DNA of 64,000 bases from Candidatus Aminicenantes bacterium (GCA_963715635.1 OY970261.1:1994471-2058470); one strand, 5' to 3'; shown: positions 2,986 to 64,000, numbered from the stretch's first letter. Numbers and translations: made by a program. The notes: generated by a model from the sequence alone, not told the origin.

Positions 2986-2997
2986 CGGAATTCTCCT

Positions 2998-5388
2998 CTA
3001 GTTCTTGCAGACGATCTCGTTGATCGACCAATGGCGGGCTTCATGAGGGCGGGTCAGCGTGATCCTCAGGTAGCGGATCAGGCACGTTTCGAAACGAATC
3101 TCCACTTTGTATTTGGAAAAGTCCTCGATCATCGACCGGTCCAACGGCGGGAAAAACGAAGGATTTTCGCGAAGCGTCGTCCACTGTGTCCCATCCAAAG
3201 ATCCTTCCACGACGAAACTCCTGGGAAAATCCAAGGGGTTGTTGTTCAGCAACAGCTCGACCTGCCGCAGACGAAGCGGCGAGCCAAGGTCGAGTCGAAA
3301 ATAATCGCCCTGGCGCTGGGGATAGCCGGTGGACCAGCCGGTATTCAAGTCGCCGTCAAAGGCCTGCGCGGCCAAAAGCTTGTTCAAGTTGGCCTCGGCT
3401 TTCCATTTCGTCCGGTCGCCGACTTTGACCAGCTGTTCCTCGTCCTGCCTCTTGGTGGCGACCGGGAACCGCCTGATCAAGAAATCCCCGTCGCTTTGGG
3501 CGACCAGCTCCACGCGGCTGGCAAAATTCCGGAGCCGCCGGACGATCTCTTTCCCCTTTTCCGGACGGTATCCCTGCGTATGGACCAGCAGATATTCGAC
3601 CGCTAGGCCGTTCAAAAGCTCAAATGTGGATTCTGAGGGAAATTGCTCCATGGCTTCCCGGATTATGCGATAACCCGGCGGAGCATACCCGCTGTATCCG
3701 TTGACGATATTCTTCCAATGATAGATCGAATAATATACCGCGGCTGCATCCTCGAACTCTTCCCAATCATGGGCAGGCATGGGAAGCTCGACGAGCGATG
3801 CCTCCTTGGGCAGCTCCCGGACCGCCGCATAAATTTTGGGGATGCGCCTTCCAATATTCACCTTGGCCAGAGGCAAGGGGAACGAAGCATAGTCAGTCAG
3901 AATCAGGAGAGCTATTATTCCCATCCCGATCATTCGAACCCGCGGACGTTTCCATTTTTCCAAAAAGAACAAAACGCCCCAACCGCTTAAGACGGCCAGG
4001 CCCAGCATCATGAGAACAGCAAAGCGGCTTGGGACTCGCAGGTTCTGGAAGCCGGGCACCCAGCTGTAGAACAGGCCGTATACCCCGCCGATGATCTCCC
4101 GGCCAAGAAGTTTGGCGACCGGCCCGAGAGAAAGCAGCCAGGCAACAACGGCGACGAACAGGTAAAATTTCTGGGGAGGGCTCGCGGCCCGGAAGAAATT
4201 GGCCCAACGGACCCTGAGAGTCGTGTCGAGCAAGACCCTCAAAAGAAGCGAAATCAAAAGTATCAAGACTGGATTTCTTAGCTGATGGACGGAAACATGA
4301 AGCCCGCCCAGCTTCCATTCGAACCCGCCCGTGACTCCGACGATAACGGCAAAAACAAACAGCAGGAGATTCAAAACGTCCCACCAAATCAAGCGCCGCT
4401 TTGGGCTGCCTGTTTGGAGCGAGCCTGCACTCCTGATTTTTTTTGTTCTTCGCCACCAAAAGAACGTCAAAGCGATGGGCACGAAGCCCGGATAGAGCTG
4501 CCATTCCTGCGCTCCCAGCGTTCCCGTCAGCCATCCCCAGGGCACATTCCAGGCGGGCGCAGCCAGGAAATGCTGAAGTTCCGCAGAATAAAACTTCACT
4601 TCCCACAACGGCCTCGAAAATAGCATCCTCGCATGAAGCTTGAAATAAGAATAGAAATACGGAAAAAGCAGGGCAGCGCACAAAGCAGCGAGCAGGGCCA
4701 TTTTCGCCCAAAAGGACCCGCTTCGCCAAACTCCCTGTTTCAGGACAAGATAAAGGAACAAAAATCCAACAAAAAGCGTCAAGTGCTCACCATAATAGCT
4801 ACAACTGAAGACCTGGAGCAGGTAGAAGAAGGCCACCCCCAGGATATTTCGGACGGTCGGGTTCTCAAAAAAACGGTGGATGAACAGAAAGCACAGCGGC
4901 ATCCAGGCAAAATAGAGAAGCTCCAGGTGGCTGATATGGGCGAACCGGTAAGGGAAAAAGGCAAAAACCAGGCCGGCCGCAAAGCCCGCCGCCCGCGAAG
5001 CTGTCAGATGCCTCACCAGATAATACATGCCCAGCCCGCAGAAAAAAAATGACAATATGAAAAGAACATTATAGGTTAGGACCGGATTGCGGCTGAGGAG
5101 TAGGACGGGAGACCCAAGAAGGGCCTCGGCGGGAAGGCTGTCGCCGTAATACAGGGTGCTGCGGTGGGGATAAAAGATATTCGCATCCGCAATTTGCGCA
5201 AACCCGGAACCCGCCGCGCGGACCTCCCAAGACAACAGCCAGACGGTATATAGAGGGTCCCTGAGGTCGGATGGGACATGATCTTCCATATGAAAAAGCA
5301 AGGGGTAGGTCATGGCCAAAGAAAGGAGCATTAGGAGCAAGACAACAGCCCAATCCTTTTTTCCTGCTTTTAAAACCACCCGATTCAT
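2998..5388 (-). CDS. GT-C fold (YfhO/PMT-like) integral membrane glycosyltransferase with C-terminal F5/8 type C (CBM32/discoidin) domain
   Basis: 796 aa; DLRDPL in first loop, many TM helices, RVPSRF motif, VNGYSG, C-terminal AFDGDLNTGWST...FRLDLGS...SLDGTQW...RYLRI..WSINEI. Confidence 0.75.
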   Translation of the reverse strand: MNRVVLKAGKKDWAVVLLLMLLSLAMTYPLLFHMEDHVPSDLRDPLYTVWLLSWEVRAAGSGFAQIADANIFYPHRSTLYYGDSLPAEALLGSPVLLLSRNPVLTYNVLFILSFFFCGLGMYYLVRHLTASRAAGFAAGLVFAFFPYRFAHISHLELLYFAWMPLCFLFIHRFFENPTVRNILGVAFFYLLQVFSCSYYGEHLTLFVGFLFLYLVLKQGVWRSGSFWAKMALLAALCAALLFPYFYSYFKLHARMLFSRPLWEVKFYSAELQHFLAAPAWNVPWGWLTGTLGAQEWQLYPGFVPIALTFFWWRRTKKIRSAGSLQTGSPKRRLIWWDVLNLLLFVFAVIVGVTGGFEWKLGGLHVSVHQLRNPVLILLISLLLRVLLDTTLRVRWANFFRAASPPQKFYLFVAVVAWLLSLGPVAKLLGREIIGGVYGLFYSWVPGFQNLRVPSRFAVLMMLGLAVLSGWGVLFFLEKWKRPRVRMIGMGIIALLILTDYASFPLPLAKVNIGRRIPKIYAAVRELPKEASLVELPMPAHDWEEFEDAAAVYYSIYHWKNIVNGYSGYAPPGYRIIREAMEQFPSESTFELLNGLAVEYLLVHTQGYRPEKGKEIVRRLRNFASRVELVAQSDGDFLIRRFPVATKRQDEEQLVKVGDRTKWKAEANLNKLLAAQAFDGDLNTGWSTGYPQRQGDYFRLDLGSPLRLRQVELLLNNNPLDFPRSFVVEGSLDGTQWTTLRENPSFFPPLDRSMIEDFSKYKVEIRFETCLIRYLRITLTRPHEARHWSINEIVCKN

Positions 5389-49796: not shown

Positions 49797-49872
49797 TGGC
49801 GCGCCTGAGAGGATTCGAACCTCCGACCTACGGATCCGGAGTCCGTCGCTCTATCCGCTGAGCTACAGGCGC
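49797..49872 (-). tRNA. tRNA-Arg(CCG)
   Basis: GCGCCTG TA GCTCAGCGGATAGAGC G ACGGA-CTCCGGA-TCCGT AGGTC GGAGG TTCGAAT CCTCT CAGGCGC G CCA. Confidence 0.95.
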
Positions 49873-50132
49873 GTCTCGTTCATTTCCAATGAGTTACGTA
49901 CGGGCTCTTGTGAGCTGAATCCGGAATTGTGACCAAATTGTGCCTTTCTATTTTATTATTATGACAATTTGAATTCAATCCATTCTTTTTGGAATTTTCC
50001 TATCATTTTCTCAGGTCACAATTTGGACATATCACTCATAAGCGCAGTCAATGTGAAAGGCATACTTTGGTGAAATTGAGTGAATTATATATGGGCAACA
50101 GTCAATAGGACGACGGACAGGAAATCCGATGA
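49833..50132 (-). repeat. direct repeat copy 1 (tRNA-Arg nt 1-40 + about 260 bp upstream with promoter and arm-like motifs)
   Basis: Colinear with 53187-53480; contains TTGAAT-17-TAAAAT (49978-49950) and TTGTGA/TTGTGACC/TTGTGCC repeats. Confidence 0.9.
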
Positions 50133-50158
50133 TCTAGCAAAATTGTTCACGGAAATTA

Positions 50159-50283
50159 TTATTGCTTCAGCTCCGCCAGCCGCTTCTTCGCATCCTCAAC
50201 GTTAGGAGGCAGGAGTTGGCACCTTTCTGTAGGGAAGGGAATTACTCGTAATGCCCTATGGTTTTGGCAGTGTCGCCTTGCCT
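50159..50283 (-). pseudogene. decayed C-terminal tail of a Ser/Thr kinase-TPR gene
   Basis: RQGDTAKTIGHYE*FPSLQKGANSCLL/VEDAKKRLAELKQ* vs intact [40 protein letters not shown]. Confidence 0.75.
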
Positions 50284-50290
50284 CGGTCGG

Positions 50291-51760
50291 CTAAATGTTA
50301 TATTTATTCAACCAAGTAATGAACTCCGCCCATTTTTTTCGCCAAAACTCTAAAGCTCTCTCTTTTTCCTCGGGTCCCATCGCCGAGTAGATGAGTGAGT
50401 TCATCGCAAGTTGTTTAAGACATTTCAAATCCAATCCCCACGCCATGAAGGCAGCATAGAAATCATAAGAAAACGAGCATTTCCAGATACCCGGATCATC
50501 GGGACAGATGACAACCGGTAAGCCACTGTTGATATAGAGCACAGCGGGGTGGTTGCGAAGATCGGCCACATAACCTAGAACTTGGTTGCTAATCGGGCAG
50601 ACCTCGATGGCGATGCCCCGTTCTTTCACTATTTGCATGAGGAGAGGATGCTTGAAAAGCGCGATACCATGCCCTATCCGCCTGGCATCAAGGAGAATGG
50701 CATCTAAAACATTTTCGTTTTCCGTCCAGTTGCTTTCGCCAGAATGAATGTATAAGGGCAGTGTGATATTGCGCTGCTCTGCCTTATGGCGTGCTTCAAG
50801 AAGTTCATTGATAAAGAATAGATTTGTGTGCTCCTTATCCTCTTCATCGGACAAATCAATACCAATAATGAGATCTGGATTTGCCGCCCGCCCGTCGAGG
50901 GCTTTATTCAAGTTCTCGGCGATTCGCTCCCGGGGGGCGGAGCGGCGAGAGGAGGATATGTATTTGACTTTAAATTCAGGGTTGTCGCGCTGTATCTCTT
51001 CTATGATTTTCTGACCCCCAATATCAGCACGGGTCTCGACATACTGCACGTTTTCTGTGATCATATCTCTAAGCATTTTGCGGCAAAAGCCATCCCAGAT
51101 CTCGTCATCTCCGAGCATACCTAAGGATCTAGCGAAACATTTTCTGAATTCAGCCCAGGTATCTGGCAGACCGAGATCTTCTTCACCGAGCGTTACAGAC
51201 CGGTAAAGCTCTTCATCAAATTCCTCAACATTATCTGCGGCTTTGCGGAGCTCGCTGACGAGGCGCCAACCGTCTCCAGGCGGTTCCGTAGAGATCCTCA
51301 TGGACCCTTTGCGAGGTAGTTCCTCCTTTCCCTGGTAAATATAACAGTTCGGCAGATACGTGGCATGCTTGATCAGCCAGCGGAAATCACCCATGGCAAG
51401 ACCGTGGCCATGAAGAATTCCACCTTTAGGCATGCGCTTTATAATTTCCAGTATGGGAGACTGGTCGATCAATTGTCTTGTTTTGGATTTCAGAAAACTA
51501 TGTGCCGGGGGAAAGTATTCACGAGTTCGTTCTATTTCCTCCTGCTTGAGTAGCATCAGCCGACGGTTCGCCTCCTCCTCTTCGGGCGCAAGCTTGATTC
51601 CGGCATCAATTCTCATCGCCAGCTCGGCCTGAATCAGTCGTTTTCTTACTTTCATATAATCATCGACATCTTTATAACGCTCTTGGACAAAACTATCCTT
51701 CTGTACTAGAAATCCACAAAGGAGAAGCGAACATACAAAAAATATAAGACCGCGTTTCAT
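50291..51760 (-). CDS. secreted ADA2/ADGF (CECR1)-type adenosine deaminase
   Basis: Signal peptide; FPPAHSF, MPKGGILHGH, ENVQYVETR, HSGES, RIGHG, EVCPISNQVL..V.DLRNHP, PDDPG, LKQLAMNS; start 51760 or 51778. Confidence 0.85.
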   Translation of the reverse strand: MKRGLIFFVCSLLLCGFLVQKDSFVQERYKDVDDYMKVRKRLIQAELAMRIDAGIKLAPEEEEANRRLMLLKQEEIERTREYFPPAHSFLKSKTRQLIDQSPILEIIKRMPKGGILHGHGLAMGDFRWLIKHATYLPNCYIYQGKEELPRKGSMRISTEPPGDGWRLVSELRKAADNVEEFDEELYRSVTLGEEDLGLPDTWAEFRKCFARSLGMLGDDEIWDGFCRKMLRDMITENVQYVETRADIGGQKIIEEIQRDNPEFKVKYISSSRRSAPRERIAENLNKALDGRAANPDLIIGIDLSDEEDKEHTNLFFINELLEARHKAEQRNITLPLYIHSGESNWTENENVLDAILLDARRIGHGIALFKHPLLMQIVKERGIAIEVCPISNQVLGYVADLRNHPAVLYINSGLPVVICPDDPGIWKCSFSYDFYAAFMAWGLDLKCLKQLAMNSLIYSAMGPEEKERALEFWRKKWAEFITWLNKYNI

Positions 51761-52042
51761 AATTCTAGCCCCTTTCATTGCACGTCAAATGGATCAAAGA
51801 GAAATTCATGATTAATGAAGATTATATGAATTTACTCTTTTGCGAGGCGCGACCTTCCCTCCCGCTAAGCTCGGGATCGATCCCGCCCCTCACCTAAAAA
51901 TGATAATACTGGCTCCGGATCGGTGTCAACATGCATAACCTAGATTCTCTCCCCAGGTGTGCCCTCCTGGGGACAGGGCGGGGACAAAATGGCTAAAAAT
52001 AGCTCAGTTTTGCTAGCTCATCCTAGAAAAAGCAGAGTGTGC

Positions 52043-52078
52043 CTCTAGCCCCGCCAGCCTCTTCCCGGCATCTTCGAT
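52043..52078 (-). pseudogene. short remnant of the kinase C-terminal tail
   Basis: IEDAGKRLAGLE; DNA CCGCCAGCCTCTTCCCGGCATCTTCGA vs CCGCCAGCCTCTTCCTGGCATCCTCGA in the kinase 3' end. Confidence 0.65.
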
Positions 52079-52119
52079 AGAATTGTCTCTTCCCGCTAAT
52101 TTTTTGCTTTTTTCTTCGG

Positions 52120-52961
52120 CTAATAAAGAACCTTGTCCTCGCCGTTCTGCTTGATCATCTCCGCGATTTCGTCCTGGATCAGTTTCTTGCGGGCGATGAT
52201 GGATTCGATTTCCTTGTCGGTCAGATAAGGTCCGACGGCCTGTTTGATACTGGCGAAATCCAGGGCCTTGATTTTATCGAGGAGAACCCGGGGAACCCGT
52301 CGGATGAGGAAAGGCTTGCCGTCGGCTTGAGCCTTTTTTATTCCCTTTATGCCGAGCACGAGTCTCTCGGTATATTCCTTATCCGAGCGGAAGGCGCGAG
52401 AATGGTCGATGAGAATCGTCCGCCAGTCTTCGGTATACCTAGTATTCTGCTGCGTCGGGTCATCGTTGGCGATCAAGCAACACCAGAGCCGGTAGACGTA
52501 TTTCATGTCCTCTGTCTGTTTCCAGGCCGATTCTGGGATTTTGATGCCCTGGTCCATGATTTCCAGGGCGTTCCATTTACTGTCTGCCCATAGAGAAAGG
52601 GCGCCCGTTTTTTTCGAAATTCTCTTTCGACAGTAGGGGGAACCATATTCAAGCCGATGAGCTTGTCAAGACGGTAAGCGGCAATTTCATATCTCCAGCT
52701 GTCCATCACGCCGCCGCCCAAATCCTCGTCAACATTTTTCCAGGCCGCCTTCTTCTCGATGCCTTCTTTTTTCAGATAAAGCTTCCAGGGTTTGGTCACG
52801 CCTTCGGGTATCCGTTCGAACCTGACAATCTCGGCCGTTTTTAAGAATTCCTCCCATTGCTCACGCTGGGCGATCTCCTGGGGCGTAAACTGGCCGCGGA
52901 CCAGAAGGCCCGCCGAAAGATACAAGAGAAAAAGATTAATGATCCATAACCTTTTTTTCAT
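52120..52961 (-). pseudogene. exported atypical kinase-fold protein (Fam20/PI3-PI4K-like), split by a -1 frameshift at an A7 run
   Basis: ORFs 52503-52961 and 52120-52557 join across T7 at 52608-52614 to give ...VEREFRKK-T-GALSLWADSKW...; motifs GVTKP, AAWK, EIAAYRLDKLIGLNMVPPTVER, LIANDD, LIDHSRAF. Confidence 0.7.
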
Positions 52962-52993
52962 GGCCCTTTCTCCCAATTCTGCCGCTTGGCGAA

Positions 52994-53022
52994 AGGATAG
53001 CACCGAAGAAGCGGTGAGTCAT
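52994..53022 (-). promoter_or_regulatory. sigma70-like promoter of the kinase-gene type
   Basis: ATGACT-17-(TGC)TATCCT-TTCGCCAAG, matching TTGACT-17-(TGT)TATCCT-TTTGCCAAG upstream of kinase 56598. Confidence 0.6.
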
Positions 53023-53071
53023 ATCGGCGCCGTGTCTATTTTTTCATCTCTCATTAAATTGTGACCATCCC

Positions 53072-53168
53072 CGGTATACTTCCACGTACTTTGGTATACT
53101 TCTGTATACCTGCAGATAATCTGTAACTTGCTGGATAGATTGACTATTACTTTGTTATCAAGAGGTTA
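53072..53168. mobile_element. att-arm-like region (GTATAC repeats, IHF-consensus site) abutting the tRNA fragment
   Basis: GGTATACTT x2, CGTACTT, TGTATACCT; TATCAAGAGGTTA (53156-53168) = WATCAANNNNTTR. Confidence 0.55.
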
Positions 53169-53186
53169 AGAGAAATGCTCGGTTTA

Positions 53187-53480
53187 GATCCGGAGTCCGT
53201 CGCTCTATCCGCTGAGCTACAGGCGCCTCTTGTTCATTTTCAATGAGTCACGTACGGGCTCTTGTGAGCCGAATCCGGAATTGTGACCAAATTGTGCCTT
53301 TCTATTTTATTGTTATGACAATTTGAATTCAATCCATTCTTTTATGAATTTTCCTATCACCTGTCACAATTTGGACACACGACTCCAAGGCTCAGTAAAT
53401 ATGAAAGTTATAACTCAATGAAATTGAATGGATTATATATGGACAACAGTCAAAAGCTCAACGGACAGGAAATCCGATGA
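53187..53480 (-). repeat. direct repeat copy 2: tRNA-Arg 5'-half fragment (53187-53226) + upstream region
   Basis: 40 nt identical to tRNA nt 1-40, ending 2 nt past the anticodon loop; the following ~250 bp is a diverged copy of 49873-50132. Confidence 0.9.
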
Positions 53481-53493
53481 CTGGCTCCTTCTA

Positions 53494-56400
53494 TTACTTC
53501 AGCGCCGCCAGCCTCTTCCTGGCATCCTCGACTTCGGGAAGGCCGGAGTCGGCGTCTTTCCAGAGCGCTAAAAACTTTTCGTAATTCCGCTGCGCCGCCG
53601 CTTTGTCGCCCTGCTTCTCGGCGATTATCCCCAGTTGATAGAAGCTTCGGGCATAGATATCACCGAAATTCATCCGCCCTGATGTCAAGGAAACGATCGC
53701 CGAGAAGGTTTTCCGGGCGTTATCCAAATCCTCGGTCAGAAGATAGGCGGTTCCCAAGGGCTCGAAATAGATCGCGTCCATTGAGCCGCTTGCCTGAGCA
53801 GTTTGGGAGGACAAGGCCTTCCTGAAATATTCGATGGCCCGGCCATAGTCCTTTTTCCCGAGATCGATTCGGCCCTGAAGATTGTCATAAAAGGCCATGG
53901 CAGGCTTATTGAGCCCCTTCGTGATGAAATCCCTGAGCTCATCCGCGGTCTTTTGCGCCTGGCCAAGGGAATTCATTTTGACCTGGGCAAGCCCTTTCTG
54001 CAGCAGGGCCCTCCTCTGCCAGCCGAGGTCGTCGGCCTGGACGGCCTTGTCCCACATCCGCTCATACAGTTTCAGCGCTTCCCCCGGAGATCCGGTCAGA
54101 TCAAATAGATAGCCCAGATTGTATAGGAAGGTGCATTGGAGCGGCAATTCGCCAGCCTGTTCAGCCAGCTCAAGCCCACGCCGGGATTCCTCTTGGGCCT
54201 TCCCAAATTTCCCCTCGGCTAAATAAAGGGAGTGAAGCCTACCTATGCCCTGGGCTTTCTGCGCACCCTGAGTGCCTTCGAGGGATTTCCGGAACGTGGT
54301 CTCTGCTTCCCGGAACTCCCCCTCCAGCAGGTCGATATTCCCCATAAGACGGAGGGTCCCGTAGTCCGAAGGCGCGACGGAACGGGCCTTCTCGGCCTCG
54401 GCCCGGGCCAGGTCAAATCGGCCCTCATAAAGATAAGTCCAGGCGACTTCACGGCGGAGGCTCAAGGAGTCCGAGTGCTCCCTGGCGTAATCCTCGAGCA
54501 GTTTCCGGGCCTTCTCATACATGCCCTTGGCCTGGTAAGTGCGGGCCAGATTCCAGGTCGGGAGAAAGCCGGCATCCTTCTGCCCAGCGAATTTTTCGTA
54601 AACCGCTTGGGCCTTGTCGCGTTCTGCAATCATATCATAAGCTGTGCCAAGATTGTTGCCTGCTATGCCGTCGTCGGGATAGAGCTTCAGCGATTTTCCG
54701 TAGGCCTCGATCGCTTTTTCTGCCGTCCTCTCGGAGAGCCGGTAGAAGTCCCCTTCGATCGTATATCTCTCTCTTTCCGAGGCCCGTTCGCGCAAATCCA
54801 TGGCTTTCTGGAGATAAGCATTGCCTTTGATCATGATGCCGAGGTTCCTGTAGGCTTGTGCCATGCTCCGGTAAGCCATGGCAAAGCCGGGGTCGATGGC
54901 CACGGCCTTCTCCATGACGGCAACGCTTTGGGAGTAATCCCCCCTCTGGTGATATTCCCGGCCCTGGGTATAGAGGATGAAGGCCTCGGGCGAGCTGGTC
55001 GTGATCTCGGCCACCTTCCTGCCGACGTCCGAAGCGATCTGCTCCGAAGTCAGCCTGAAATCGGCCTTGATCTTCCGCGTCAGTTCGTCCACGGCCTCGA
55101 ACATTCCCTGGTCGCCCTGGGCTTCTACCCTGTTTGTGCCGAGTATTTCGCCGGTCTTGGGGTTTTCGAGGACGGCGTTGATGCGGATGGTGTTGCCGGC
55201 CTTGGCGAAGCTTCCCCGGAGGATATTCTCGACGCCTCCCGCCTCGGCGACCTTTTTCAGATCGTCGGAGGAGTAGCTCTTGGCATCGAGGAGGTTTTCG
55301 CTCCGGAGGATGCTATAGAGCCGGTCGCCTCCCATAACAGTGAGGTATTTGGACTGGCCGATATCGGTCGTGATCAGCTCGGCCAGGGCCTTCCGCCAAT
55401 GGTCCAGGCCGGGATCGCCGGTGTTGTTCTCGAAATACATGACGCCCAGGGAGGGCTTGCCCGACGGGGGCGGCGCGATGGAGGGCTTCTTGAGGACGAC
55501 GAGCCAGAGGACGAGGGCTGCGGCCACGACCAGAGCGCCCGAGATGACCGGCACGGCGACCTTCTTGACGTCGAAAGAGACCGTGACCTGCTTGGAGGTG
55601 TGTGGCCGGTGTCTTGGCACGACCCGCTCGGTCGTCGGCAAGGACTGCTCGATCCGGGCTAGCTCGTCGATGAGCTCGCCGGCGCTCTGGAACCGCTTCT
55701 CTTTTTCCTTCTCGAGCGAGCGCAGGGTGAGGCGCGCCAGGTCCTCAGGGAGCGCAGGATTGAGTTCGCGCGGGTCGCGCGGCTTCTCGCTCTTGTGCTT
55801 GACCCCGATCGTGAACGGCGTATCGCCCTCGAACGGGACGCGCCCGGTCGTCATCTCGTAGAGGATGATCCCCAGGGAATAGATGTCCGAGCGCGCGTCA
55901 ACCGCTTTCCCTTCGACCTGCTCGGGGCTCATGTATTCCGGCGTCCCGATCATGATCCCGGCCCCGGTGATGCCCTTTTTCTCGAGCGAACGGGCGATGC
56001 CGAAGTCCATGATCCGGACGTTGCCGCCCTCGTCGACCATGATGTTCTGCGGCTTGAGGTCGCGGTGGACGATGCCGTGGGTATGGGCCTCGGCCAGCCC
56101 CTCGGCGATCTGGCGGGCGATCGAGACCGTCCGGCCCGCCGGCATCTGGCCGATCTTGCGGATGAGACGCTTGAGGTCCTCCCCGGGAACGTACTCCATG
56201 GTGATGTACGGCGCCCCCTCGGCCCGGCCGATGTCGAACATCCGGCAGACGTTCTTATGGGCGACTTGCCGCGCCGACTTGAGCTCGTTTCGGAAACGCT
56301 CGACCGTATCGGCGTCGGCGGCGACCTCGGGCCGGAGGAGCTTCAGAGCAACCTTCTCGTTGAGCTCGGTGTCGTGGACCTTGTAGACGCGGCCCATGCC

Positions 56401-56598
56401 GCCCCGGCCGAGCTCCTCGATGACCTGGTAGCGGCCGGCAAAGGTGGAACCCGTTGTTAGCTCTTTAATCGGCGTTTGAAGAGTTTCGGTGACCTCGGGA
56501 TGGATATTTCTGGAAGAGGGAAGCTGAGTGCCGCAATCTCCGCAGAATTGTTTGGTCTCTGGATTCTCAGCCTTACATTTCGGGCACTTGATGGTCAC
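53494..56598 (-). CDS. membrane Ser/Thr protein kinase: zinc ribbon + kinase + TM + TolB-N/FlgO-like + TPR
   Basis: CPKC..CGDCG; LGRGGMGRV, VALK, HRDLKPQN, DFG, GTPEYMSPEQ; TM; VMYFENNTGD; TPRs; [23 protein letters not shown]. Confidence 0.93.
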   Translation of the reverse strand: MTIKCPKCKAENPETKQFCGDCGTQLPSSRNIHPEVTETLQTPIKELTTGSTFAGRYQVIEELGRGGMGRVYKVHDTELNEKVALKLLRPEVAADADTVERFRNELKSARQVAHKNVCRMFDIGRAEGAPYITMEYVPGEDLKRLIRKIGQMPAGRTVSIARQIAEGLAEAHTHGIVHRDLKPQNIMVDEGGNVRIMDFGIARSLEKKGITGAGIMIGTPEYMSPEQVEGKAVDARSDIYSLGIILYEMTTGRVPFEGDTPFTIGVKHKSEKPRDPRELNPALPEDLARLTLRSLEKEKEKRFQSAGELIDELARIEQSLPTTERVVPRHRPHTSKQVTVSFDVKKVAVPVISGALVVAAALVLWLVVLKKPSIAPPPSGKPSLGVMYFENNTGDPGLDHWRKALAELITTDIGQSKYLTVMGGDRLYSILRSENLLDAKSYSSDDLKKVAEAGGVENILRGSFAKAGNTIRINAVLENPKTGEILGTNRVEAQGDQGMFEAVDELTRKIKADFRLTSEQIASDVGRKVAEITTSSPEAFILYTQGREYHQRGDYSQSVAVMEKAVAIDPGFAMAYRSMAQAYRNLGIMIKGNAYLQKAMDLRERASERERYTIEGDFYRLSERTAEKAIEAYGKSLKLYPDDGIAGNNLGTAYDMIAERDKAQAVYEKFAGQKDAGFLPTWNLARTYQAKGMYEKARKLLEDYAREHSDSLSLRREVAWTYLYEGRFDLARAEAEKARSVAPSDYGTLRLMGNIDLLEGEFREAETTFRKSLEGTQGAQKAQGIGRLHSLYLAEGKFGKAQEESRRGLELAEQAGELPLQCTFLYNLGYLFDLTGSPGEALKLYERMWDKAVQADDLGWQRRALLQKGLAQVKMNSLGQAQKTADELRDFITKGLNKPAMAFYDNLQGRIDLGKKDYGRAIEYFRKALSSQTAQASGSMDAIYFEPLGTAYLLTEDLDNARKTFSAIVSLTSGRMNFGDIYARSFYQLGIIAEKQGDKAAAQRNYEKFLALWKDADSGLPEVEDARKRLAALK

Positions 56599-56625
56599 TG
56601 GTAACCCCTCTGGTTTCTTGGCAAA

Positions 56626-56654
56626 AGGATAACAACAAACGAGAGAAGAGTCAA
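56626..56654 (-). promoter_or_regulatory. sigma70-like promoter of kinase gene
   Basis: TTGACT-17 bp-TATCCT with TG extension. Confidence 0.6.
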
Positions 56655-56702
56655 ATCAGAACGGCTTACGCTTCGGTTTGGCGCAGCCTATAAGAGTTGG
56701 GG

Positions 56703-56873
56703 CTATCTTAGCCCAGCCAGCCTCTTCCTGGCATCCTCGACTTCGGGCAGGCCGGGATCGGCGTCCTTCCAGAGGTCGAGAAATTTCTTATAGCGGTCTA
56801 TGACTTTGCCCTTGTTGCCTTACTCTCCGAATCTTTCGCCAAGTTAGCAAAAGGCTTTGGTGTATACGTCGCT
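56703..56873 (-). pseudogene. 57-codon remnant of the kinase C-terminal tail
   Basis: [54 protein letters not shown]. Confidence 0.85.
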
Positions 56874-57100
56874 AATATTAGGTCAACTCGAACCTGCTCT
56901 TTACCCACCCCAAACTTCTTCCCATTTATCTCGAAAACAATGTCTTCAGTGAACATAGCATCTATTGCATCTAGGTCGTGGCGATTAGCCGCATCCACGT
57001 AAGTCTTGACCCGACTCAGAAGATTCTCCCTTTGGCATCCGATGAAAGTGGCAAGCAGGATTACGACAGCCAATCCCATCTTTAAAACTCTTTCAACCAT
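56798..57100 (-). pseudogene. truncated SnoaL/NTF2-like lipoprotein fused out of frame to the kinase tail
   Basis: AAGGAGG RBS; lipobox FIGC; VKTYVDAANRHDLDAIDAMFTEDIVF..GKEQVR, then sequence switches to the kinase-tail DNA near 56873. Confidence 0.65.
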
Positions 57101-57615
57101 TTTGACCTCCTTCTTTGTAAAGGGACGAAGGATCGAGCCAAGTCGCCTCAATCCAAAGCTATGTGCTGAATAGAACCTTTCCCTCTCTCCTCACTGTTTT
57201 TATGATCTTATTTATGAATCGTATGATGATGTCAAGAAGCCGTATCATTAACGAGAAATCTGTTGTCATAATTCACTCCTAGGCGGATAATCTAACCAAT
57301 TTCGAGTTCGATATCCTCCTTATTTTACCACCCGGACAGTAAGACTTCCAAGATCCATTGCCCCAGGCGCTGGCGGATCGACGTTAATAGCCATCGAAAA
57401 ACGCACCTTTAGGCACACTGAAGATTCTTCCCTCGCTTTAAATCCGCCCTCTTCTTTCCCCCCTCTCCGATTTGCCCTTGATGTTGATTGTCGTCGTGAT
57501 CGCGGAAAGAAATACGGAAGAAATAAAAAATAAGGAAATGGCTGCTAGTCGCCCGCTAATCACCAGGGAGAATCCGACGTTCCGTGCTCGGATGCCCAGT
57601 TCCCTTAGAAATTTC

Positions 57616-58716
57616 TCAGTAATAGCCCGCCTTTTGGAGTGCCTCCAAAGACTTGAACGGTTTGGGAGGATTCAGGTAACGGGCCAGGAAATTATAAATT
57701 TTCAGCCGGATTATTTTTGCGTTCATGATGTCGAGCCGGTCGAAGGAGTGGCCTCCGGGCGCATCCTTGAAGATTTCATATTCGAACTTTTTGCCCGCCG
57801 CTTTCAAAGCTTGAATGAGATGCTCCACCTCGAGCACATTGACGTCCTCGTCGTTGGTGTTTGTGTGAATAAGAAGCGGCGTCCGAAGCTTGTCAACATG
57901 GGATACAGGCGAGCGGCGGAGGTACTCTTTGACATCCTCTTCCGCCGTCTTGCCGATACTGTATTTGGCCTCAAACTCGTCCCGGTACTCCTGATCTTTG
58001 TATCCCATCCGCGCGACAAGGTCGCTGACCGGCACGCCGGCAAAAGCTACTCTGTATCCTTCGGGATGGTCGAAAACGTTCATCAGGGCGATGAGTCCCC
58101 CGTGGCTCCAGCCGATAATGCCAACTCTGTCTTTGTCCACGATATCATAATTTTCTACCACGAAATTGCGGCTGGCATAGACATCCTCGTTCTCCAACCC
58201 GCCGTAATCGACGAGTTTGTACATCCCGCTTCCATAGCCGGTGCTCCCCCGGTATTCTGGCGCTACGACCACATACCCCTGGGCGACCATCTCTCGGATG
58301 ATGTGCGTGTGGTAGGCGTCAAAATCGGCGTGAGACCCTCCGTGGGGCAGGACGAGGAGGGGATATTTTTTCGACCGGTCTACGTCCCTCGGGATAAAGA
58401 CATAGGTATAAAATTTAATGGGATTTCCTGCGCCCTGCGCCGTGGGATTCGGTTCCTTCCAGCGGGGCGGTCCGACGATGCGGACTTTGTCCACATAAGC
58501 CACGTCGCCAACTCTCTCAAACCAGGTCACATCATCGACGGCCTTCTCCAGCACGTCCAGCCGGTGATTGAGCGCTTCGAATTGCTGGCGCAGATAGCGC
58601 AGCTCGGCGCTCTCGGCTTGTGAAGAGACCTGAGCGAGCACCGGGGAGAGAGGAACAAATCCCAGGGCGGCCATGACGATCGCGGCTGAAAATATTTTTT
58701 CATAAAATTTCTTCAT
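57616..58716 (-). CDS. secreted S9 (prolyl oligopeptidase-like) peptidase, catalytic domain only
   Basis: AAGGAGG RBS; signal peptide; PLLVLPHGG, PEYRGSTGYG, GWSHGG, NDEDV, GGHSF. Confidence 0.88.
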   Translation of the reverse strand: MKKFYEKIFSAAIVMAALGFVPLSPVLAQVSSQAESAELRYLRQQFEALNHRLDVLEKAVDDVTWFERVGDVAYVDKVRIVGPPRWKEPNPTAQGAGNPIKFYTYVFIPRDVDRSKKYPLLVLPHGGSHADFDAYHTHIIREMVAQGYVVVAPEYRGSTGYGSGMYKLVDYGGLENEDVYASRNFVVENYDIVDKDRVGIIGWSHGGLIALMNVFDHPEGYRVAFAGVPVSDLVARMGYKDQEYRDEFEAKYSIGKTAEEDVKEYLRRSPVSHVDKLRTPLLIHTNTNDEDVNVLEVEHLIQALKAAGKKFEYEIFKDAPGGHSFDRLDIMNAKIIRLKIYNFLARYLNPPKPFKSLEALQKAGYY

Positions 58717-58810
58717 CCGAGCACCTCCTTTAGGGATAGAAATACTCTTTTTCCCTCCGCAGGGGAATTCTTTCTTTTGTATTTAAAATCCATGTTTCCC
58801 ATCGCGCAAA

Positions 58811-58840
58811 AATATATCGCCGGCTGGCGAGGAATGTCAA
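58811..58840 (-). promoter_or_regulatory. sigma70-like promoter of the S9 peptidase gene
   Basis: TTGACA-18 bp-TATATT. Confidence 0.45.
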
Positions 58841-58888
58841 TCGCTTGAACTCCTTGTCAATAGAAATCGTTCCTTAGGAATTAGAAAT

Positions 58889-59002
58889 TTAAAATTGTTC
58901 GACGCTCTCCTCGGCCGCCGCAAGGGCGACCTGCTTGAAGACAAGGGACGGCATAGGTCTCTCCGCAACAAAGGTCAGCTTCAGGTGCTCGATGATCCGG
59001 TC
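58889..59002 (-). mobile_element. putative C-terminal remnant of an IS91-family transposase
   Basis: DRIIEHLKLTFVAERPMPSLVFKQVALAAAEESVEQF*; RIIxHLxL...P-x-P pattern resembles IS91/Y2 transposase C-termini (recognition from memory). Confidence 0.5.
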
Positions 59003-61778
59003 ACCGAAGATTCTCCACCAGCCACAAGTCCTGAACGGAATGATCGACTTGTACATAGAGCAAGAACGTTTCGTCAGGTGAAACGGAGAGGCTGGGCCAA
59101 ATGATAAAGCCCACAGGCTTCCGGATTGTAGCTAGTTCCTTTTCTTCGCCGGTTGCGAGATTGAGAAGCCGGATAGAGGTGGTACCATCATCATTCGGTT
59201 TTCCAAAATAGATTCCATTTTTCATCACGGCATATCCTTTTTCAGACCGTAAGACTCTCTGCTCCTCTCCCCCGCCCAATGGAACGCTCCATAAGCCGTC
59301 TCCTTCTTTCGCGTAATAGATACGCGTTCTATCAACGGCCTCAAAAGCAACGGACCAACCCCCGTGCTTCGTTAGCTGAACCGCAATCCCTCTCTCGGCC
59401 GGCATCTTCCAGATCTCCCACTGTGAGGTGCGGTTCGAGACGAAATAGATCCAGCGGCCGTCCCGCGACCAGCTGGGGAATATCTCAACAGAAGGTTCGG
59501 TTGTAAGGCGGCGTGGTACCCCTCCTTGGGCATTGATCACAAAGATGTCGCTGTTGCCTTCGGGGCGAGCATCAAAAGCAATCTGCTGGCCATCAAGGGA
59601 CCATCGCGGGCTACCCACCAGCATGCTTCGGAAAGAAGTCAACTGCAGGGCGTTGGCGCCATCGCTGTCACACACCCAGATTTCCCAATGTCCCGATCGA
59701 TTCGAAGCAAAGGCGATCCGTTTGCCGTCGGGAGAGAAGTCAGGGCTCACGTCCTCCCTTGTAGATTTGATTAACAGCGATGAGATTCCGCGCCGGCCAG
59801 CGGGACCTATTACCTCCATCCTCCAGATGTTTGTGTCCACGAGATTTGCGCTGAACGCCAGCCGAGGAGCACCCTCCGGGCCTTGGCGAGACACACCAGG
59901 GATGACGTTCCTGCCCTGAGTGTCCAGTATCTTTTTCTGTTTTCCTCCGGAGGCGGGAATCTCCCACAAAGCGGAGCTGCCGTCACGCTCGGAAGAGAAC
60001 AAGATACTGCGCCCATGAGGCATATATACTGGTCCGCGGTTCAAGCGACTATCGAAAGTGAGACGCTTGGGGTCTCCGCCGGTCACGGGCACTGCATATA
60101 GGTCGGACACATAATTGCCAGACCATCGGACAAAGACGATGTGGCGGCCGTCAGGAGAAAACGCCGGCGAGTTATCCCAGAACTCCGTGGTCAACTGCGT
60201 CCTCTCTCCCGTCTCGATTGAGACCAAATAGATTTTGTAGCCAGGTTCCCTGGCGGGCGAACTGTCCGCTAGGACCAGGGATTTTCCGTCCAGAGACCAG
60301 TCGAGCGCGCGATCCCCCATGCTAGGGGAGAAATAGTCGGTCAAGCGGCGCTCGGGGCCACCCAACGGGGAGACCGCGAAAATACCGCTGTTAAGGCGAA
60401 CATAGGCAATCTGACTGCCGTCGGGAGACCAAGCGGGGCAGCGTTCCGAAGCCGGATCACGGGTCAGGCGAAGCGGCGTCGTTGAATCCACCCGCATGAC
60501 GAAGATATCGAAATTATCCCCATTTTCGCCGCTCCAACTGAACGCGATCTGCTTGCCATCCGGGGATACCGCAGGATCCCTCTCGATTCCAGGATAACTG
60601 GTCAAAGGGACAGCCCTCGGAGCACCGGCCGGCGCCTGAGATGGCGGGCCTAACACTCGCCACAACAGCCCTGCGCCGACCACGAGCACCAATGCGAGTC
60701 CTGCTACCCACAGCAGCCTCAGGCGTCGCCTCGGCTTTGTGGAACCCTCCGCTTCCATCGCGCCGGAATCAGACTCCTCCTTGACTTCCATTAAAGCAAC
60801 TCTGAGATCCGCCATTGTCTGAAAACGACGCTCCGGGTCCTTCCGCAGGCACCGCTTGACAATCCGCTCCACCTCCTTGGGCAGGCCTTCAACGATCTGG
60901 CTGGCCGGCTGGGGATCCTCGCGCAGGATCGCGGCGATTGTTGAGACCTTCGTGTCGCCCTGAAAGGCTCTCCGGCCAGTTAGCATTTCGTATAGCACGG
61001 ACCCGAAGCTGAAGATATCTGAGCGAGCGTCTACCTCCTTGCCCTCCGTCTGCTCCGGCGACATGTAAGCGACGGTGCCGACGATCTTGCCCTCTTCGGT
61101 CGCCGGCCTCATCGTGCGCGTAGCGTCGTCCTGGGCAGGCGGAAGCGCCGGCCCCACCGCCACCTCGGTGAGTTTCGCTAGGCCGAAGTCTAGGACTTTC
61201 GCCAGCCCGTGCTCGTCCACCATGATGTTGCCGGGCTTCAGGTCGCGATGAATGATGCCAGCGGAATGCGCGCGGCTCAGCGCATCGGCCAATTGCATCG
61301 CATAGCTCAACGCCTCGTTCAGCTTCAGTCCCTTGCGGCCGATCAGTTCATCGAGCGTCCGTCCGTCAACGAACTCCATGGCAATAAAGTCCATTCCGTC
61401 CGCTTGGTCAATGTCATAGATGTGAATGATGTTGGGGTGATTTAAAGCTGATGCAGCCTTAGCCTCTTGGATAAACCGCAGTTTGCGCCTTGGATCGGAG
61501 ACTTTCTCGCGCGGAAGGACCTTGATGGCGGCAAAACGGTTCAGGCGAGTATCGCGGGCTTTATACACGACACCCATGCCTCCCTCGCCGATCTTCTCAA
61601 TAACCTGGTAGCGGCCGGCTAATGTCGAGCCGGATGTCAGTTCTTTAACGGGCGTTTGGACAGCCTCCGCAAGAGAAGCAGAGATTTTTTCTGACGATTG
61701 AAGTGAGGCGGCACAATGACTGCAAAATCTTGCCGGCTCTGGATTCTCAGCCTGACACTTCGGGCACTTGATGGCCAA
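59001..61778 (-). CDS. membrane Ser/Thr protein kinase with TolB-like (PD40) beta-propeller
   Basis: CPKC..CSHC; IGEGGMGVV, HRDLKPGN, DFGLAK, GTVAYMSPEQ; TM; repeated P.xSPDG..IAF blades. Confidence 0.92.
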   Translation of the reverse strand: MAIKCPKCQAENPEPARFCSHCAASLQSSEKISASLAEAVQTPVKELTSGSTLAGRYQVIEKIGEGGMGVVYKARDTRLNRFAAIKVLPREKVSDPRRKLRFIQEAKAASALNHPNIIHIYDIDQADGMDFIAMEFVDGRTLDELIGRKGLKLNEALSYAMQLADALSRAHSAGIIHRDLKPGNIMVDEHGLAKVLDFGLAKLTEVAVGPALPPAQDDATRTMRPATEEGKIVGTVAYMSPEQTEGKEVDARSDIFSFGSVLYEMLTGRRAFQGDTKVSTIAAILREDPQPASQIVEGLPKEVERIVKRCLRKDPERRFQTMADLRVALMEVKEESDSGAMEAEGSTKPRRRLRLLWVAGLALVLVVGAGLLWRVLGPPSQAPAGAPRAVPLTSYPGIERDPAVSPDGKQIAFSWSGENGDNFDIFVMRVDSTTPLRLTRDPASERCPAWSPDGSQIAYVRLNSGIFAVSPLGGPERRLTDYFSPSMGDRALDWSLDGKSLVLADSSPAREPGYKIYLVSIETGERTQLTTEFWDNSPAFSPDGRHIVFVRWSGNYVSDLYAVPVTGGDPKRLTFDSRLNRGPVYMPHGRSILFSSERDGSSALWEIPASGGKQKKILDTQGRNVIPGVSRQGPEGAPRLAFSANLVDTNIWRMEVIGPAGRRGISSLLIKSTREDVSPDFSPDGKRIAFASNRSGHWEIWVCDSDGANALQLTSFRSMLVGSPRWSLDGQQIAFDARPEGNSDIFVINAQGGVPRRLTTEPSVEIFPSWSRDGRWIYFVSNRTSQWEIWKMPAERGIAVQLTKHGGWSVAFEAVDRTRIYYAKEGDGLWSVPLGGGEEQRVLRSEKGYAVMKNGIYFGKPNDDGTTSIRLLNLATGEEKELATIRKPVGFIIWPSLSVSPDETFLLYVQVDHSVQDLWLVENLR

Positions 61779-61808
61779 TGCCGACCCCTTTCCTATTCAT
61801 GTTTAATC

Positions 61809-64000
<2,192 letters not shown>

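Follow-up and report, generated by a model that had tools for sequence, protein, structure and literature searches.

Recurrent kinase-TPR gene tails at gene ends and at the seams of mosaic DNA in a Candidatus Aminicenantes genome

Layout of the locus

The window considered here is a 64,000-nucleotide (nt) stretch of DNA from a Candidatus Aminicenantes bacterium (GCA_963715635.1, OY970261.1:1994471-2058470), and the element in question is the tail, i.e., the 3′ end of a gene for a membrane Ser/Thr kinase-TPR sensor. The last ~80 nt of this gene (53494-56598, minus strand) recur after an ADA2-like adenosine deaminase gene, after a gene of unknown family referred to as kinase-like, and at the end of a truncated SnoaL-like open reading frame (ORF). 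Elsewhere in the genome, copies of the tail coincide with the endpoints of recent duplications, and the favored reading is that they are passive homology anchors and deletion stubs of a rapidly changing paralog family. Coordinates are those of the window unless they are given as genome positions.

The minus-strand genes follow the order S9 peptidase, truncated SnoaL ORF, kinase-TPR gene, kinase-like gene, ADA2-like gene, and tRNA-Arg(CCG). The kinase-TPR gene is intact, encodes 1034 amino acids (aa), matches Pfam Pkinase (4e-57) and TPR families, and ends in the reference tail (53494-53575). The ADA2-like gene (50291..51778) matches A_deaminase (7.6e-26) and A_deaminase_N (1.9e-09) and is preceded by a strong promoter-like site of its own (51929..51900, 11/12). 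The kinase-like gene (52120..53003) contains one frameshift at an A8 run, and its ORFs have no Pfam match. Metagenome contigs from three of four runs (X2, X3, and X4) carry one extra base behind 52603, the site of this frameshift, and an intact paralog is located at genome 4112610-4113578. The SnoaL-like ORF (56798..57151) covers only positions 1-40 of the 102 of SnoaL_2. Farther upstream, the rest of the variable block (57616..61778) comprises the S9 peptidase (57616-58716) and a kinase-PD40 gene (59001-61778), both assigned by Pfam and both on the minus strand. Signal peptides of the window proteins were judged by eye from their N-termini only.

A 25-nt core within the tail, GAGGATGCCAGGAAGAGGCTGGCGG on the minus strand, occurs four times in the window with at most 3 mismatches, while 100 shuffles give an expectation of 0.00. 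The copies lie at 50173-50197 (3 mismatches), 52051-52075 (2), 53505-53529 (0), and 56714-56738 (1). A profile of the last 84 nt of the gene places the corresponding tails at about 50164-50242, 52043-52078, 53495-53574, and 56708-56785, the third being that of the intact gene and the other three orphans. The first orphan (50159..50283) is a decayed version of ~57 codons of the kinase-TPR 3′ end that sits directly after ADA2: the ADA2 stop is at 50291, and the homology, including the "GDKA..YEKFL" part, begins a few nt on and reaches 50159. The second (52043..52078) consists of the core only, model positions 46-81, and starts 41 nt beyond the stop of the kinase-like ORF at 52120. It is followed by a post-tail unit (51947..52042) that is 71-82% identical by BLAST to sequences behind tails at four other genome loci (446570-446674, 2279053-2279167, 2808128-2808264, and 883538-883598). 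The third orphan, with its upstream remnant (56703..56884), is separated from the start of the kinase-TPR gene by a 104-nt spacer and is 88% identical over 175 nt to genome 2279137-2279311 (BLAST). All three lie on the minus strand.

A preliminary description of this DNA had reported three unrelated genes, each followed by a kinase tail, and its gene identities, coordinates, and distances are borne out. It had also described the SnoaL gene as fused to its tail. The ORF stops five codons into the third orphan's remnant in another frame, and the arrangement is therefore an adjacency and not a protein fusion. The concern that the fragments might be assembly chimeras is answered by an independent metagenome contig (X3, 3111 nt, 46 differing letters) that covers 50113-53212; it spans the ADA2-stub, second-stub, and tRNA-fragment junctions, which are therefore not assembly artefacts. 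Contigs of X1 and X2 omit 87 nt (29 codons) at 55215-55303 inside the kinase-TPR gene, an in-frame length variant in other populations. Several metagenome signals were not used as evidence: the low-depth joins 52072-53534 (X1) and 52015-53497 (X3) and several further joints with sides of 31 nt or less are inseparable from paralogs or other organisms, and 53765-55520 is almost without cover in X3 and X4.

The tail as a coding end and as a dispersed repeat

The tail corresponds to the conserved last ~27 codons of the kinase-TPR family, which form the final TPR capping helix. The genome (G000) is a single 4.28-Mb contig whose ends (1-3022 and 4280286-4283307) match each other at 99.87% identity over 3022 nt, the overlap of a circular assembly that was not collapsed. 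It harbors 52 tails by the 84-nt profile, of which 16 end intact kinase-TPR genes and 36 are orphans. The 16 intact ORFs encode 877-1171 aa with Pkinase and TPR domains, among 64 kinase-domain ORFs in the genome. Most orphans are stubs of 28-150 nt, a few lie behind family pseudogenes (454 kb, 2804 kb, 3805 kb, and 2645 kb), and their 5′ ends scatter over model positions 2-54. Models built from all 16 or from 8 diverged intact tails yield no extra short orphans; they add two significant matches (1744728 and 1925947) and two marginal ones (E 0.04-0.06).

Orphans are found near gene ends above chance, as the preliminary description had expected. Twelve of the 36 start within 60 nt of a same-strand ORF stop, versus 3.8-5.6 expected (P about 0.0002). 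Five of these 12 ORFs are family kinases or pieces thereof, and the remaining seven comprise ADA2, the kinase-like gene, SnoaL, two NHL propellers, a serine dehydratase, and a sigma-70 factor. The upstream neighbor is on the same strand for 26 orphans (p=0.006) and on the opposite strand for 10. Neighbors of the full set include ADA2, SnoaL, NHL and PD40 propellers, serine dehydratase, sigma-70, SDR, MBL-fold, amidohydrolase, and M29 peptidase genes.

Tails are also present in relatives. The congener G002 has 17, of which 6 end long ORFs and 11 do not, and six genomes from other genera or families of the order have 11 (4 intact, 6 orphans, and 1 that runs off the analyzed piece). The core, with at most 3 mismatches, occurs in 33 copies in G000, 14 and 16 in two congeners, and 0-2 in 28 other relatives. 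Since tails both intact and orphaned are found in G002 and in other genera, the phenomenon belongs to the order and is expanded in this genus.

Members of the family die often and leave terminal stubs behind. A protein-level search outside the long family genes recovered ~10 short N-terminal kinase stubs (aa 1-120) as well as the C-terminal ones, and no high-identity mid-gene kinase fragments; at two loci (458 kb and 3501 kb), an N-terminal stub is fused to a tail. These stubs, along with internally deleted genes, point to plain gene decay as a co-cause of the pattern. Decay could even be the entire cause, if orphans were leftovers of deleted kinase-TPR genes that are kept since deletions cannot enter neighboring genes or signals. 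Tails would then play no part in recombination, and their overlap with seams would arise from kinase genes residing in variable regions. The survival of stubs from both gene ends, the internal deletions, and the varied 5′ truncation points agree with such an account, as does the third window orphan: its tail-spacer-kinase-start layout (56598-56786) is that of a tandem kinase array and is also present at genome 1348712-1349698 and 2649285-2650306.

Decay alone also fits the absence of special synonymous conservation. For the 16 intact genes pooled, codon identity at positions of matching residue is 0.55 in the tail, as compared to 0.44-0.60 in the columns of the kinase domain and 0.33-0.46 over most of the TPR part, so no constraint peculiar to the tail is seen. 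A higher value (0.73) from 8 "canonical" genes was discarded as circular because the group is defined by core similarity.

Features of the core itself raise the possibility that this ~35-45-nt stretch is a functional DNA or RNA cis element with, for example, a protein-binding, repair, or regulatory role, kept by selection even after the kinase gene is gone and only secondarily linked to seams. Orphan cores are more uniform than those of intact genes (mean pairwise identity 0.873 over 463 pairs versus 0.772 over 66 pairs), and the core is kept where the 5′ part has decayed, as in the ADA2 stub (0.82 versus 0.62 to the consensus). The core also retains AGG-AAG-AGG although AGG accounts for only 15% of Arg codons, and other families of the order have DNA that matches the core with no more than 3 mismatches. 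Finally, by our own count, 49 of 52 tails lie on the leading strand, as compared to 52% of all ORFs of at least 100 aa, with replication strands set from GC-skew extremes at 1.48 and 3.61 Mb. Much of this bias, however, is accounted for by the kinase-domain genes, 52 of 64 of which are leading, and detection favors conserved short copies. The gap between the 5′ part and the core is small in model-length orphans (0.878 versus 0.923). The four window copies have no shared or stable fold (z-scores −0.63, +1.06, −0.60, and −2.63) and no attC-like structure; the core holds only a 5-bp inverted repeat, which, in our own reading of the core alignment, variants break with no compensation. There is no terminator-like site at any tail, and Rfam finds only tRNAs, with no match at tails. 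A cis element of this kind is distinctly improbable.

Several other identities for the tail were rejected. An RNA motif or terminator is contradicted by the lack of an Rfam family beyond tRNAs, of a terminator-like site, and of a shared fold. A portable protein tag does not fit the 75 short database proteins that bear the tail, all of which have helical-repeat (TPR-type) Pfam families or none; no kinase, deaminase, or SnoaL family occurs in any of them, and four accessions among their families (PF28559, PF21033, PF16068, and PF23300) could not be named. A repetitive extragenic palindromic (REP) or miniature inverted-repeat transposable element (MITE) type of repeat is at variance with a unit that is colinear with a coding 3′ end, in frame in 16 copies, and not palindromic. 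The core contains GCTGGCGG, one letter from E. coli Chi, but a Chi-like role is unsupported: this motif is not over-represented in the genome (observed/expected 0.97), and its skew is mild (260 leading and 171 lagging, ~45 of them from tails).

Other repeats and motifs of the genome were recorded in passing. The most replication-skewed octamers are AAGGGGAG-like (194 leading and 56 lagging) and are candidates for the lineage's polar motif, of the FtsK-orienting (KOPS) or Chi type. A 1.6-kb element in 8 copies of 99.8-100% identity (one at genome 481604-483210) and a 1.3-kb element in 3 copies (455409-456721) are presumably active insertion sequences, one of which interrupts a kinase N-terminal fragment. 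A MITE-like repeat of ~270 nt (L018 11309-11577, equal to genome 2543308-2543577) is present in dozens of copies of 90-95% identity, in the congeners G001 and G002.

Tails at the seams of mosaic DNA

The preliminary description had proposed the tail as a recurrent recombination junction, and the duplications within the genome uphold this part of it. Once the terminal overlap of the assembly is set aside, the genome has 46 low-copy repeats of 250 nt or more with identities of 88% or higher. Seven of these repeats contribute the 14 endpoints, out of 184, that lie no more than 15 nt from a tail. Chance would give 0.22 such endpoints, or 1.27 when placement is confined to the intergenic part of the genome, and none of 2000 random placements gave more than 4; the enrichment is about 10-60 fold. 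Two events, E1 and E3, locate the join more closely. Their tails differ by ~15%, while the DNA behind them keeps 97.6% identity over 777 nt in one event and 99.3% over 2864 nt in the other, and the join therefore lies at the tail's 3′ end. Tails usually touch recent duplications at one end only, as the far ends of the duplicated pieces are abrupt and have no second site in 5 of 6 events examined. One 879-bp unit with tails on both sides occurs in two copies (446570-447446 and 2278287-2279161). By eye, the small ORFs in tail-bounded segments resemble bactofilin and dCTP deaminase genes and do not resemble transposases.

Comparison with G002 yields the same picture across species. A G002 segment that is 97% identical to genome 469346-469933 halts at the last base of an orphan tail. 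At the window locus, flanks are kept in G002 from tRNA-Lys to tRNA-Arg (82.5%) and over 61789-64000 (97.6%), and synteny breaks at 49873, so that a hypervariable block extends from tRNA-Arg to 61789, where the conserved flank resumes. Between the same flanks, G002 (C14) has an S9 peptidase of 1008 aa, a kinase gene on the reverse strand, two kinase-TPR genes that bear tails, and a further kinase followed by an orphan; other genes between common flanks are thus found, as had been anticipated. Identity between the window kinase and the two G002 kinases of the locus is 46% and 40%, and one of the two is much closer in its N-terminus and kinase domain than in its TPR part. Little orthology was found in G001 and G002 for L017 and L018.

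The ADA2 gene provides a view of an older junction. Segment 50239-51813 is the only part held in common (84%) with the ADA2 loci of G001 and G002, where the gene occupies another locus, upstream of a 601-aa repeat protein. What these congeners keep behind ADA2 is the beginning of the stub, which ends at about model position 20 in a join to another gene. The ADA2-stub junction, common to three species, predates the species split, and a later break fell inside the stub. In G002, a gene with 97% identity to the S9 peptidase gene (57569-58898 region) is found across the tRNA block, on its opposite side. Such a patchwork of identities (97-97.6% for the S9 gene and the right flank, 82.5% for the tRNA block, and 84% for ADA2) suggests recent interspecies exchange.

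These seams are difficult to reconcile with decay as the sole cause. Leftover stubs would not place recent duplication endpoints on the tails themselves, nor put near-identical downstream DNA behind diverged tails at different loci, nor stop a cross-species block at a tail's last base. Decay alone is accordingly regarded as an unlikely explanation, although it is retained above as a contributor.

A further seam involves tRNA-Arg(CCG), whose intact gene (49797..49872, minus strand; ARAGORN, Rfam 71.4 bits) lies in the conserved flank common to G002. A direct repeat of ~395 nt, 49833-50227 versus 53187-53560, is 82% identical overall (BLAST) and 95% over the 173 nt beside the tRNA. It comprises the tail, the intergenic region (a 260-nt spacer after the intact tail), and the first ~40 nt of the tRNA. 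Copy R2 of the tRNA 5′ part and upstream intergenic region (49833..50132, minus strand; D1/D4, 95% and 81% to 53187-53480) contains a promoter-like site (49978..49950). The truncated tRNA-Arg 5′ fragment (53187-53226) adjoins a ~130-nt arm with GTATACC-like repeats (together 53056..53226, minus strand), a junction also present in G001 (C579, 82%). ADA2 and the kinase-like gene (50.2-53.2 kb) lie between the two tRNA copies.

This block resembles a worn-down tRNA-linked islet. As in tRNA-gene genomic islands, part of a tRNA is repeated directly at both ends (the 40-nt 5′ part at 53187-53226 and the intact gene at 49797-49872), and the repeat-bearing arm beside the fragment recalls islands that grow by tandem accretion. 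In contrast to such islands, the duplicated part is the tRNA 5′ half plus ~355 nt upstream, tail included, in place of a short 3′ att repeat, and there is no integrase: the window has no PF00589 match, and the repeats enclose the ORFs of ADA2 and the kinase-like gene. A tRNA-island origin explains at most one junction of the window. At two other loci (genome 883187-883510 and 1228330-1228400), 3′ fragments of a CAT-anticodon tRNA begin only a few nt beyond an orphan tail, with Rfam partial tRNAs at 883199-883248 and 883443-883500; tail seams and tRNA-fragment seams coincide there.

The junctions could instead be the work of a dedicated site-specific cassette system, in which an unrecognized recombinase encoded elsewhere moves cassettes at the tail core. 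The co-oriented window genes, each followed by a tail, are what such a system would produce, and the twice-present 879-bp unit with tails on both sides, the gene-sized ADA2 segment held in common with relatives (50239-51813), and the occurrence of orphans across the order are compatible with it. However, a whole-genome search for PF00589 gives 5 matches (2189694, 2190567, 3467022, 3558124, and 4274354), none of them in the window or near tail clusters and the nearest ~131 kb beyond the window end. There is also no fixed crossover and no attC-like structure, five of the six far ends lack any tail, and many cargo genes are encoded on the opposite strand or stand hundreds of nt from the tail. A system of this type is very improbable. 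Two better-known alternatives were rejected: a diversity-generating retroelement, as the sole reverse transcriptase match (RVT_1, 406056-406676) is 1.59 Mb from the window, with adenine-specific mismatches outside the test; and IS200/RAYT elements, as all four Y1_Tnp matches are far from tails.

Origin of the pattern and related systems

The favored explanation, held with a probability of roughly 0.55, is that tails are passive, one-sided homology anchors together with deletion stubs, both derived from a fast-turnover family of kinase-TPR paralogs, with no integron-like machine. Family members die often, and deletions bounded by neighboring genes leave stubs, mostly 3′ tails but also 5′ stubs and 5′-3′ fusions. 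The tails of 40-80 nt constitute a co-oriented dispersed repeat that would lend ectopic and inter-strain recombination short anchors of homology. One end of a segment would be joined through homology, in or at a tail, and the opposite end illegitimately, either through homology-facilitated illegitimate recombination (HFIR) or through synthesis primed from an invading tail end. The latter step, in which a tail end invades another tail and copies the DNA downstream, is inferred from the one-sided joins. Different genes would thereby land beside tails, and tail-plus-neighbor modules would be copied around the genome, presumably with no dedicated recombinase or folded site taking part. The "array" of the window would be such a patchwork in a hypervariable block, partly between a truncated and an intact tRNA-Arg. 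While the pattern of tails at seams is directly seen, the mechanism is inferred from it. The data fit a sensor-kinase family of high turnover that has conserved ends and a variable sensor middle.

Several points weigh against this explanation. A crossover inside a tail should restore the whole tail, yet many orphans are 5′-truncated (model positions 2-54), so that one has to assume additional deletions or illegitimate joins within the tails. At 40-80 nt, the anchors are also shorter than those reported from HFIR experiments. The gene calls come from a crude longest-ORF caller, and the direction and order of events are not fixed by an outgroup. Lastly, simple neutral decay does not predict orphan cores more uniform than those of intact genes (0.873 against 0.772), a suggestive discrepancy only, given that short orphans are detectable only if they are model-like.

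This uniformity and the leading-strand bias keep alive, as a faint prospect, the idea that the 35-45-nt core (..GAGGATGCCAGGAAGAGGCTGGCGGGGCTGAAG) serves Aminicenantes-type bacteria as a replication-oriented, cis-acting site of recombination or repair. If so, broken or incoming DNA ends would invade the core and prime copying downstream of another copy. Gene-sized segments would then be transferred between loci and species with no integrase, and the kinase family would serve as the carrier.

Passive homology anchors and stubs are best appreciated next to known systems. The window had been likened to an integron array without attC sites or integrase. The resemblance lies in co-oriented, unrelated genes that are each followed by a short repeat copy, and neither attC nor integrase is indeed found, but the organized system that the comparison implies is not supported. 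Integrons have IntI, attI, folded attC-like sites, and a fixed crossover, whereas here all are absent, and the repeat is a piece of coding sequence. Orphan 5′ ends spread over model positions 2-54, and 5 of 6 far ends lack a second site. Integron cassettes are mostly promoterless; here the window genes are co-oriented, ADA2 has its own promoter-like site, and 10 of 36 orphans have an opposite-strand neighbor. Cargo elsewhere also includes housekeeping-type genes such as serine dehydratase and sigma-70, and two of the three window cargo genes are damaged or doubtful (the SnoaL fragment and the frameshifted kinase-like gene).

The bab/hop outer-membrane paralogs of Helicobacter pylori are nearly identical at their 5′ and 3′ ends, which permits gene conversion from one locus to another. 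They share with the present family conserved ends and a variable middle, comparable to the mosaic kinase/TPR similarity described above. The exchange in H. pylori stays within the family, whereas here unrelated genes stand beside the conserved end.

A close parallel is provided by the orphan effector/immunity arrays of the V. cholerae type VI secretion system (T6SS), which are proposed to arise by HFIR (PMC5361080). In this proposal, a conserved stretch acts as a one-sided anchor with an illegitimate join at the other end and no dedicated recombinase, and successive events leave arrays of displaced pieces in which a remnant of the former gene's 3′ end persists (PMC5361080). The two systems differ in that the T6SS anchor is the conserved upstream (5′) part and the cargo is toxin/immunity pairs (PMC5361080), whereas the anchor here is the 3′ terminus of a sensor kinase and the neighbors are unrelated metabolic, regulatory, or exported-protein genes. 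Unlike the T6SS arrays, many of the present stubs look like plain deletion leftovers.

An anchor-type mechanism of the same kind is proposed for Rhs C-terminal displacement (PMC2935791). Rhs and orphan Rhs/CdiA-CT modules are likewise reported to involve paralogs with a conserved and a variable part, strings of orphans beside full-length genes, and rearrangement hot spots (PMC2935791, PMC3150448). The preliminary description had called the window a mirror image of these Rhs and contact-dependent inhibition (CDI) modules, and the polarity is indeed reversed: the 3′ end (the last ~27 codons) is conserved and the upstream region variable, instead of a conserved 5′ and a variable 3′ part. A further difference is that the orphans here are short non-coding stubs and not expressible toxin modules. 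Full-length genes (16) do coexist with orphan pieces that keep the conserved region (36), but the toxin/immunity cargo of orphan-module arrays is absent as judged by neighbor families, with PADLOC and toxin libraries not searched. The tail feature is also absent from the titles and abstracts, among the matches listed, on Aminicenantes with kinase or with recombination and repeat.

For genome annotation, the tails carry a warning, as about two-thirds of their copies are non-coding stubs that may be called as tiny ORFs. If the favored explanation is correct, the model of a conserved anchor plus an illegitimate join would extend beyond toxin systems, with its polarity reversed. The 3′ end of an ordinary signaling-gene family would then provide genome-wide recombination handles that shape the flexible genome of an uncultured lineage widespread in wetland, peat, and sediment metagenomes.

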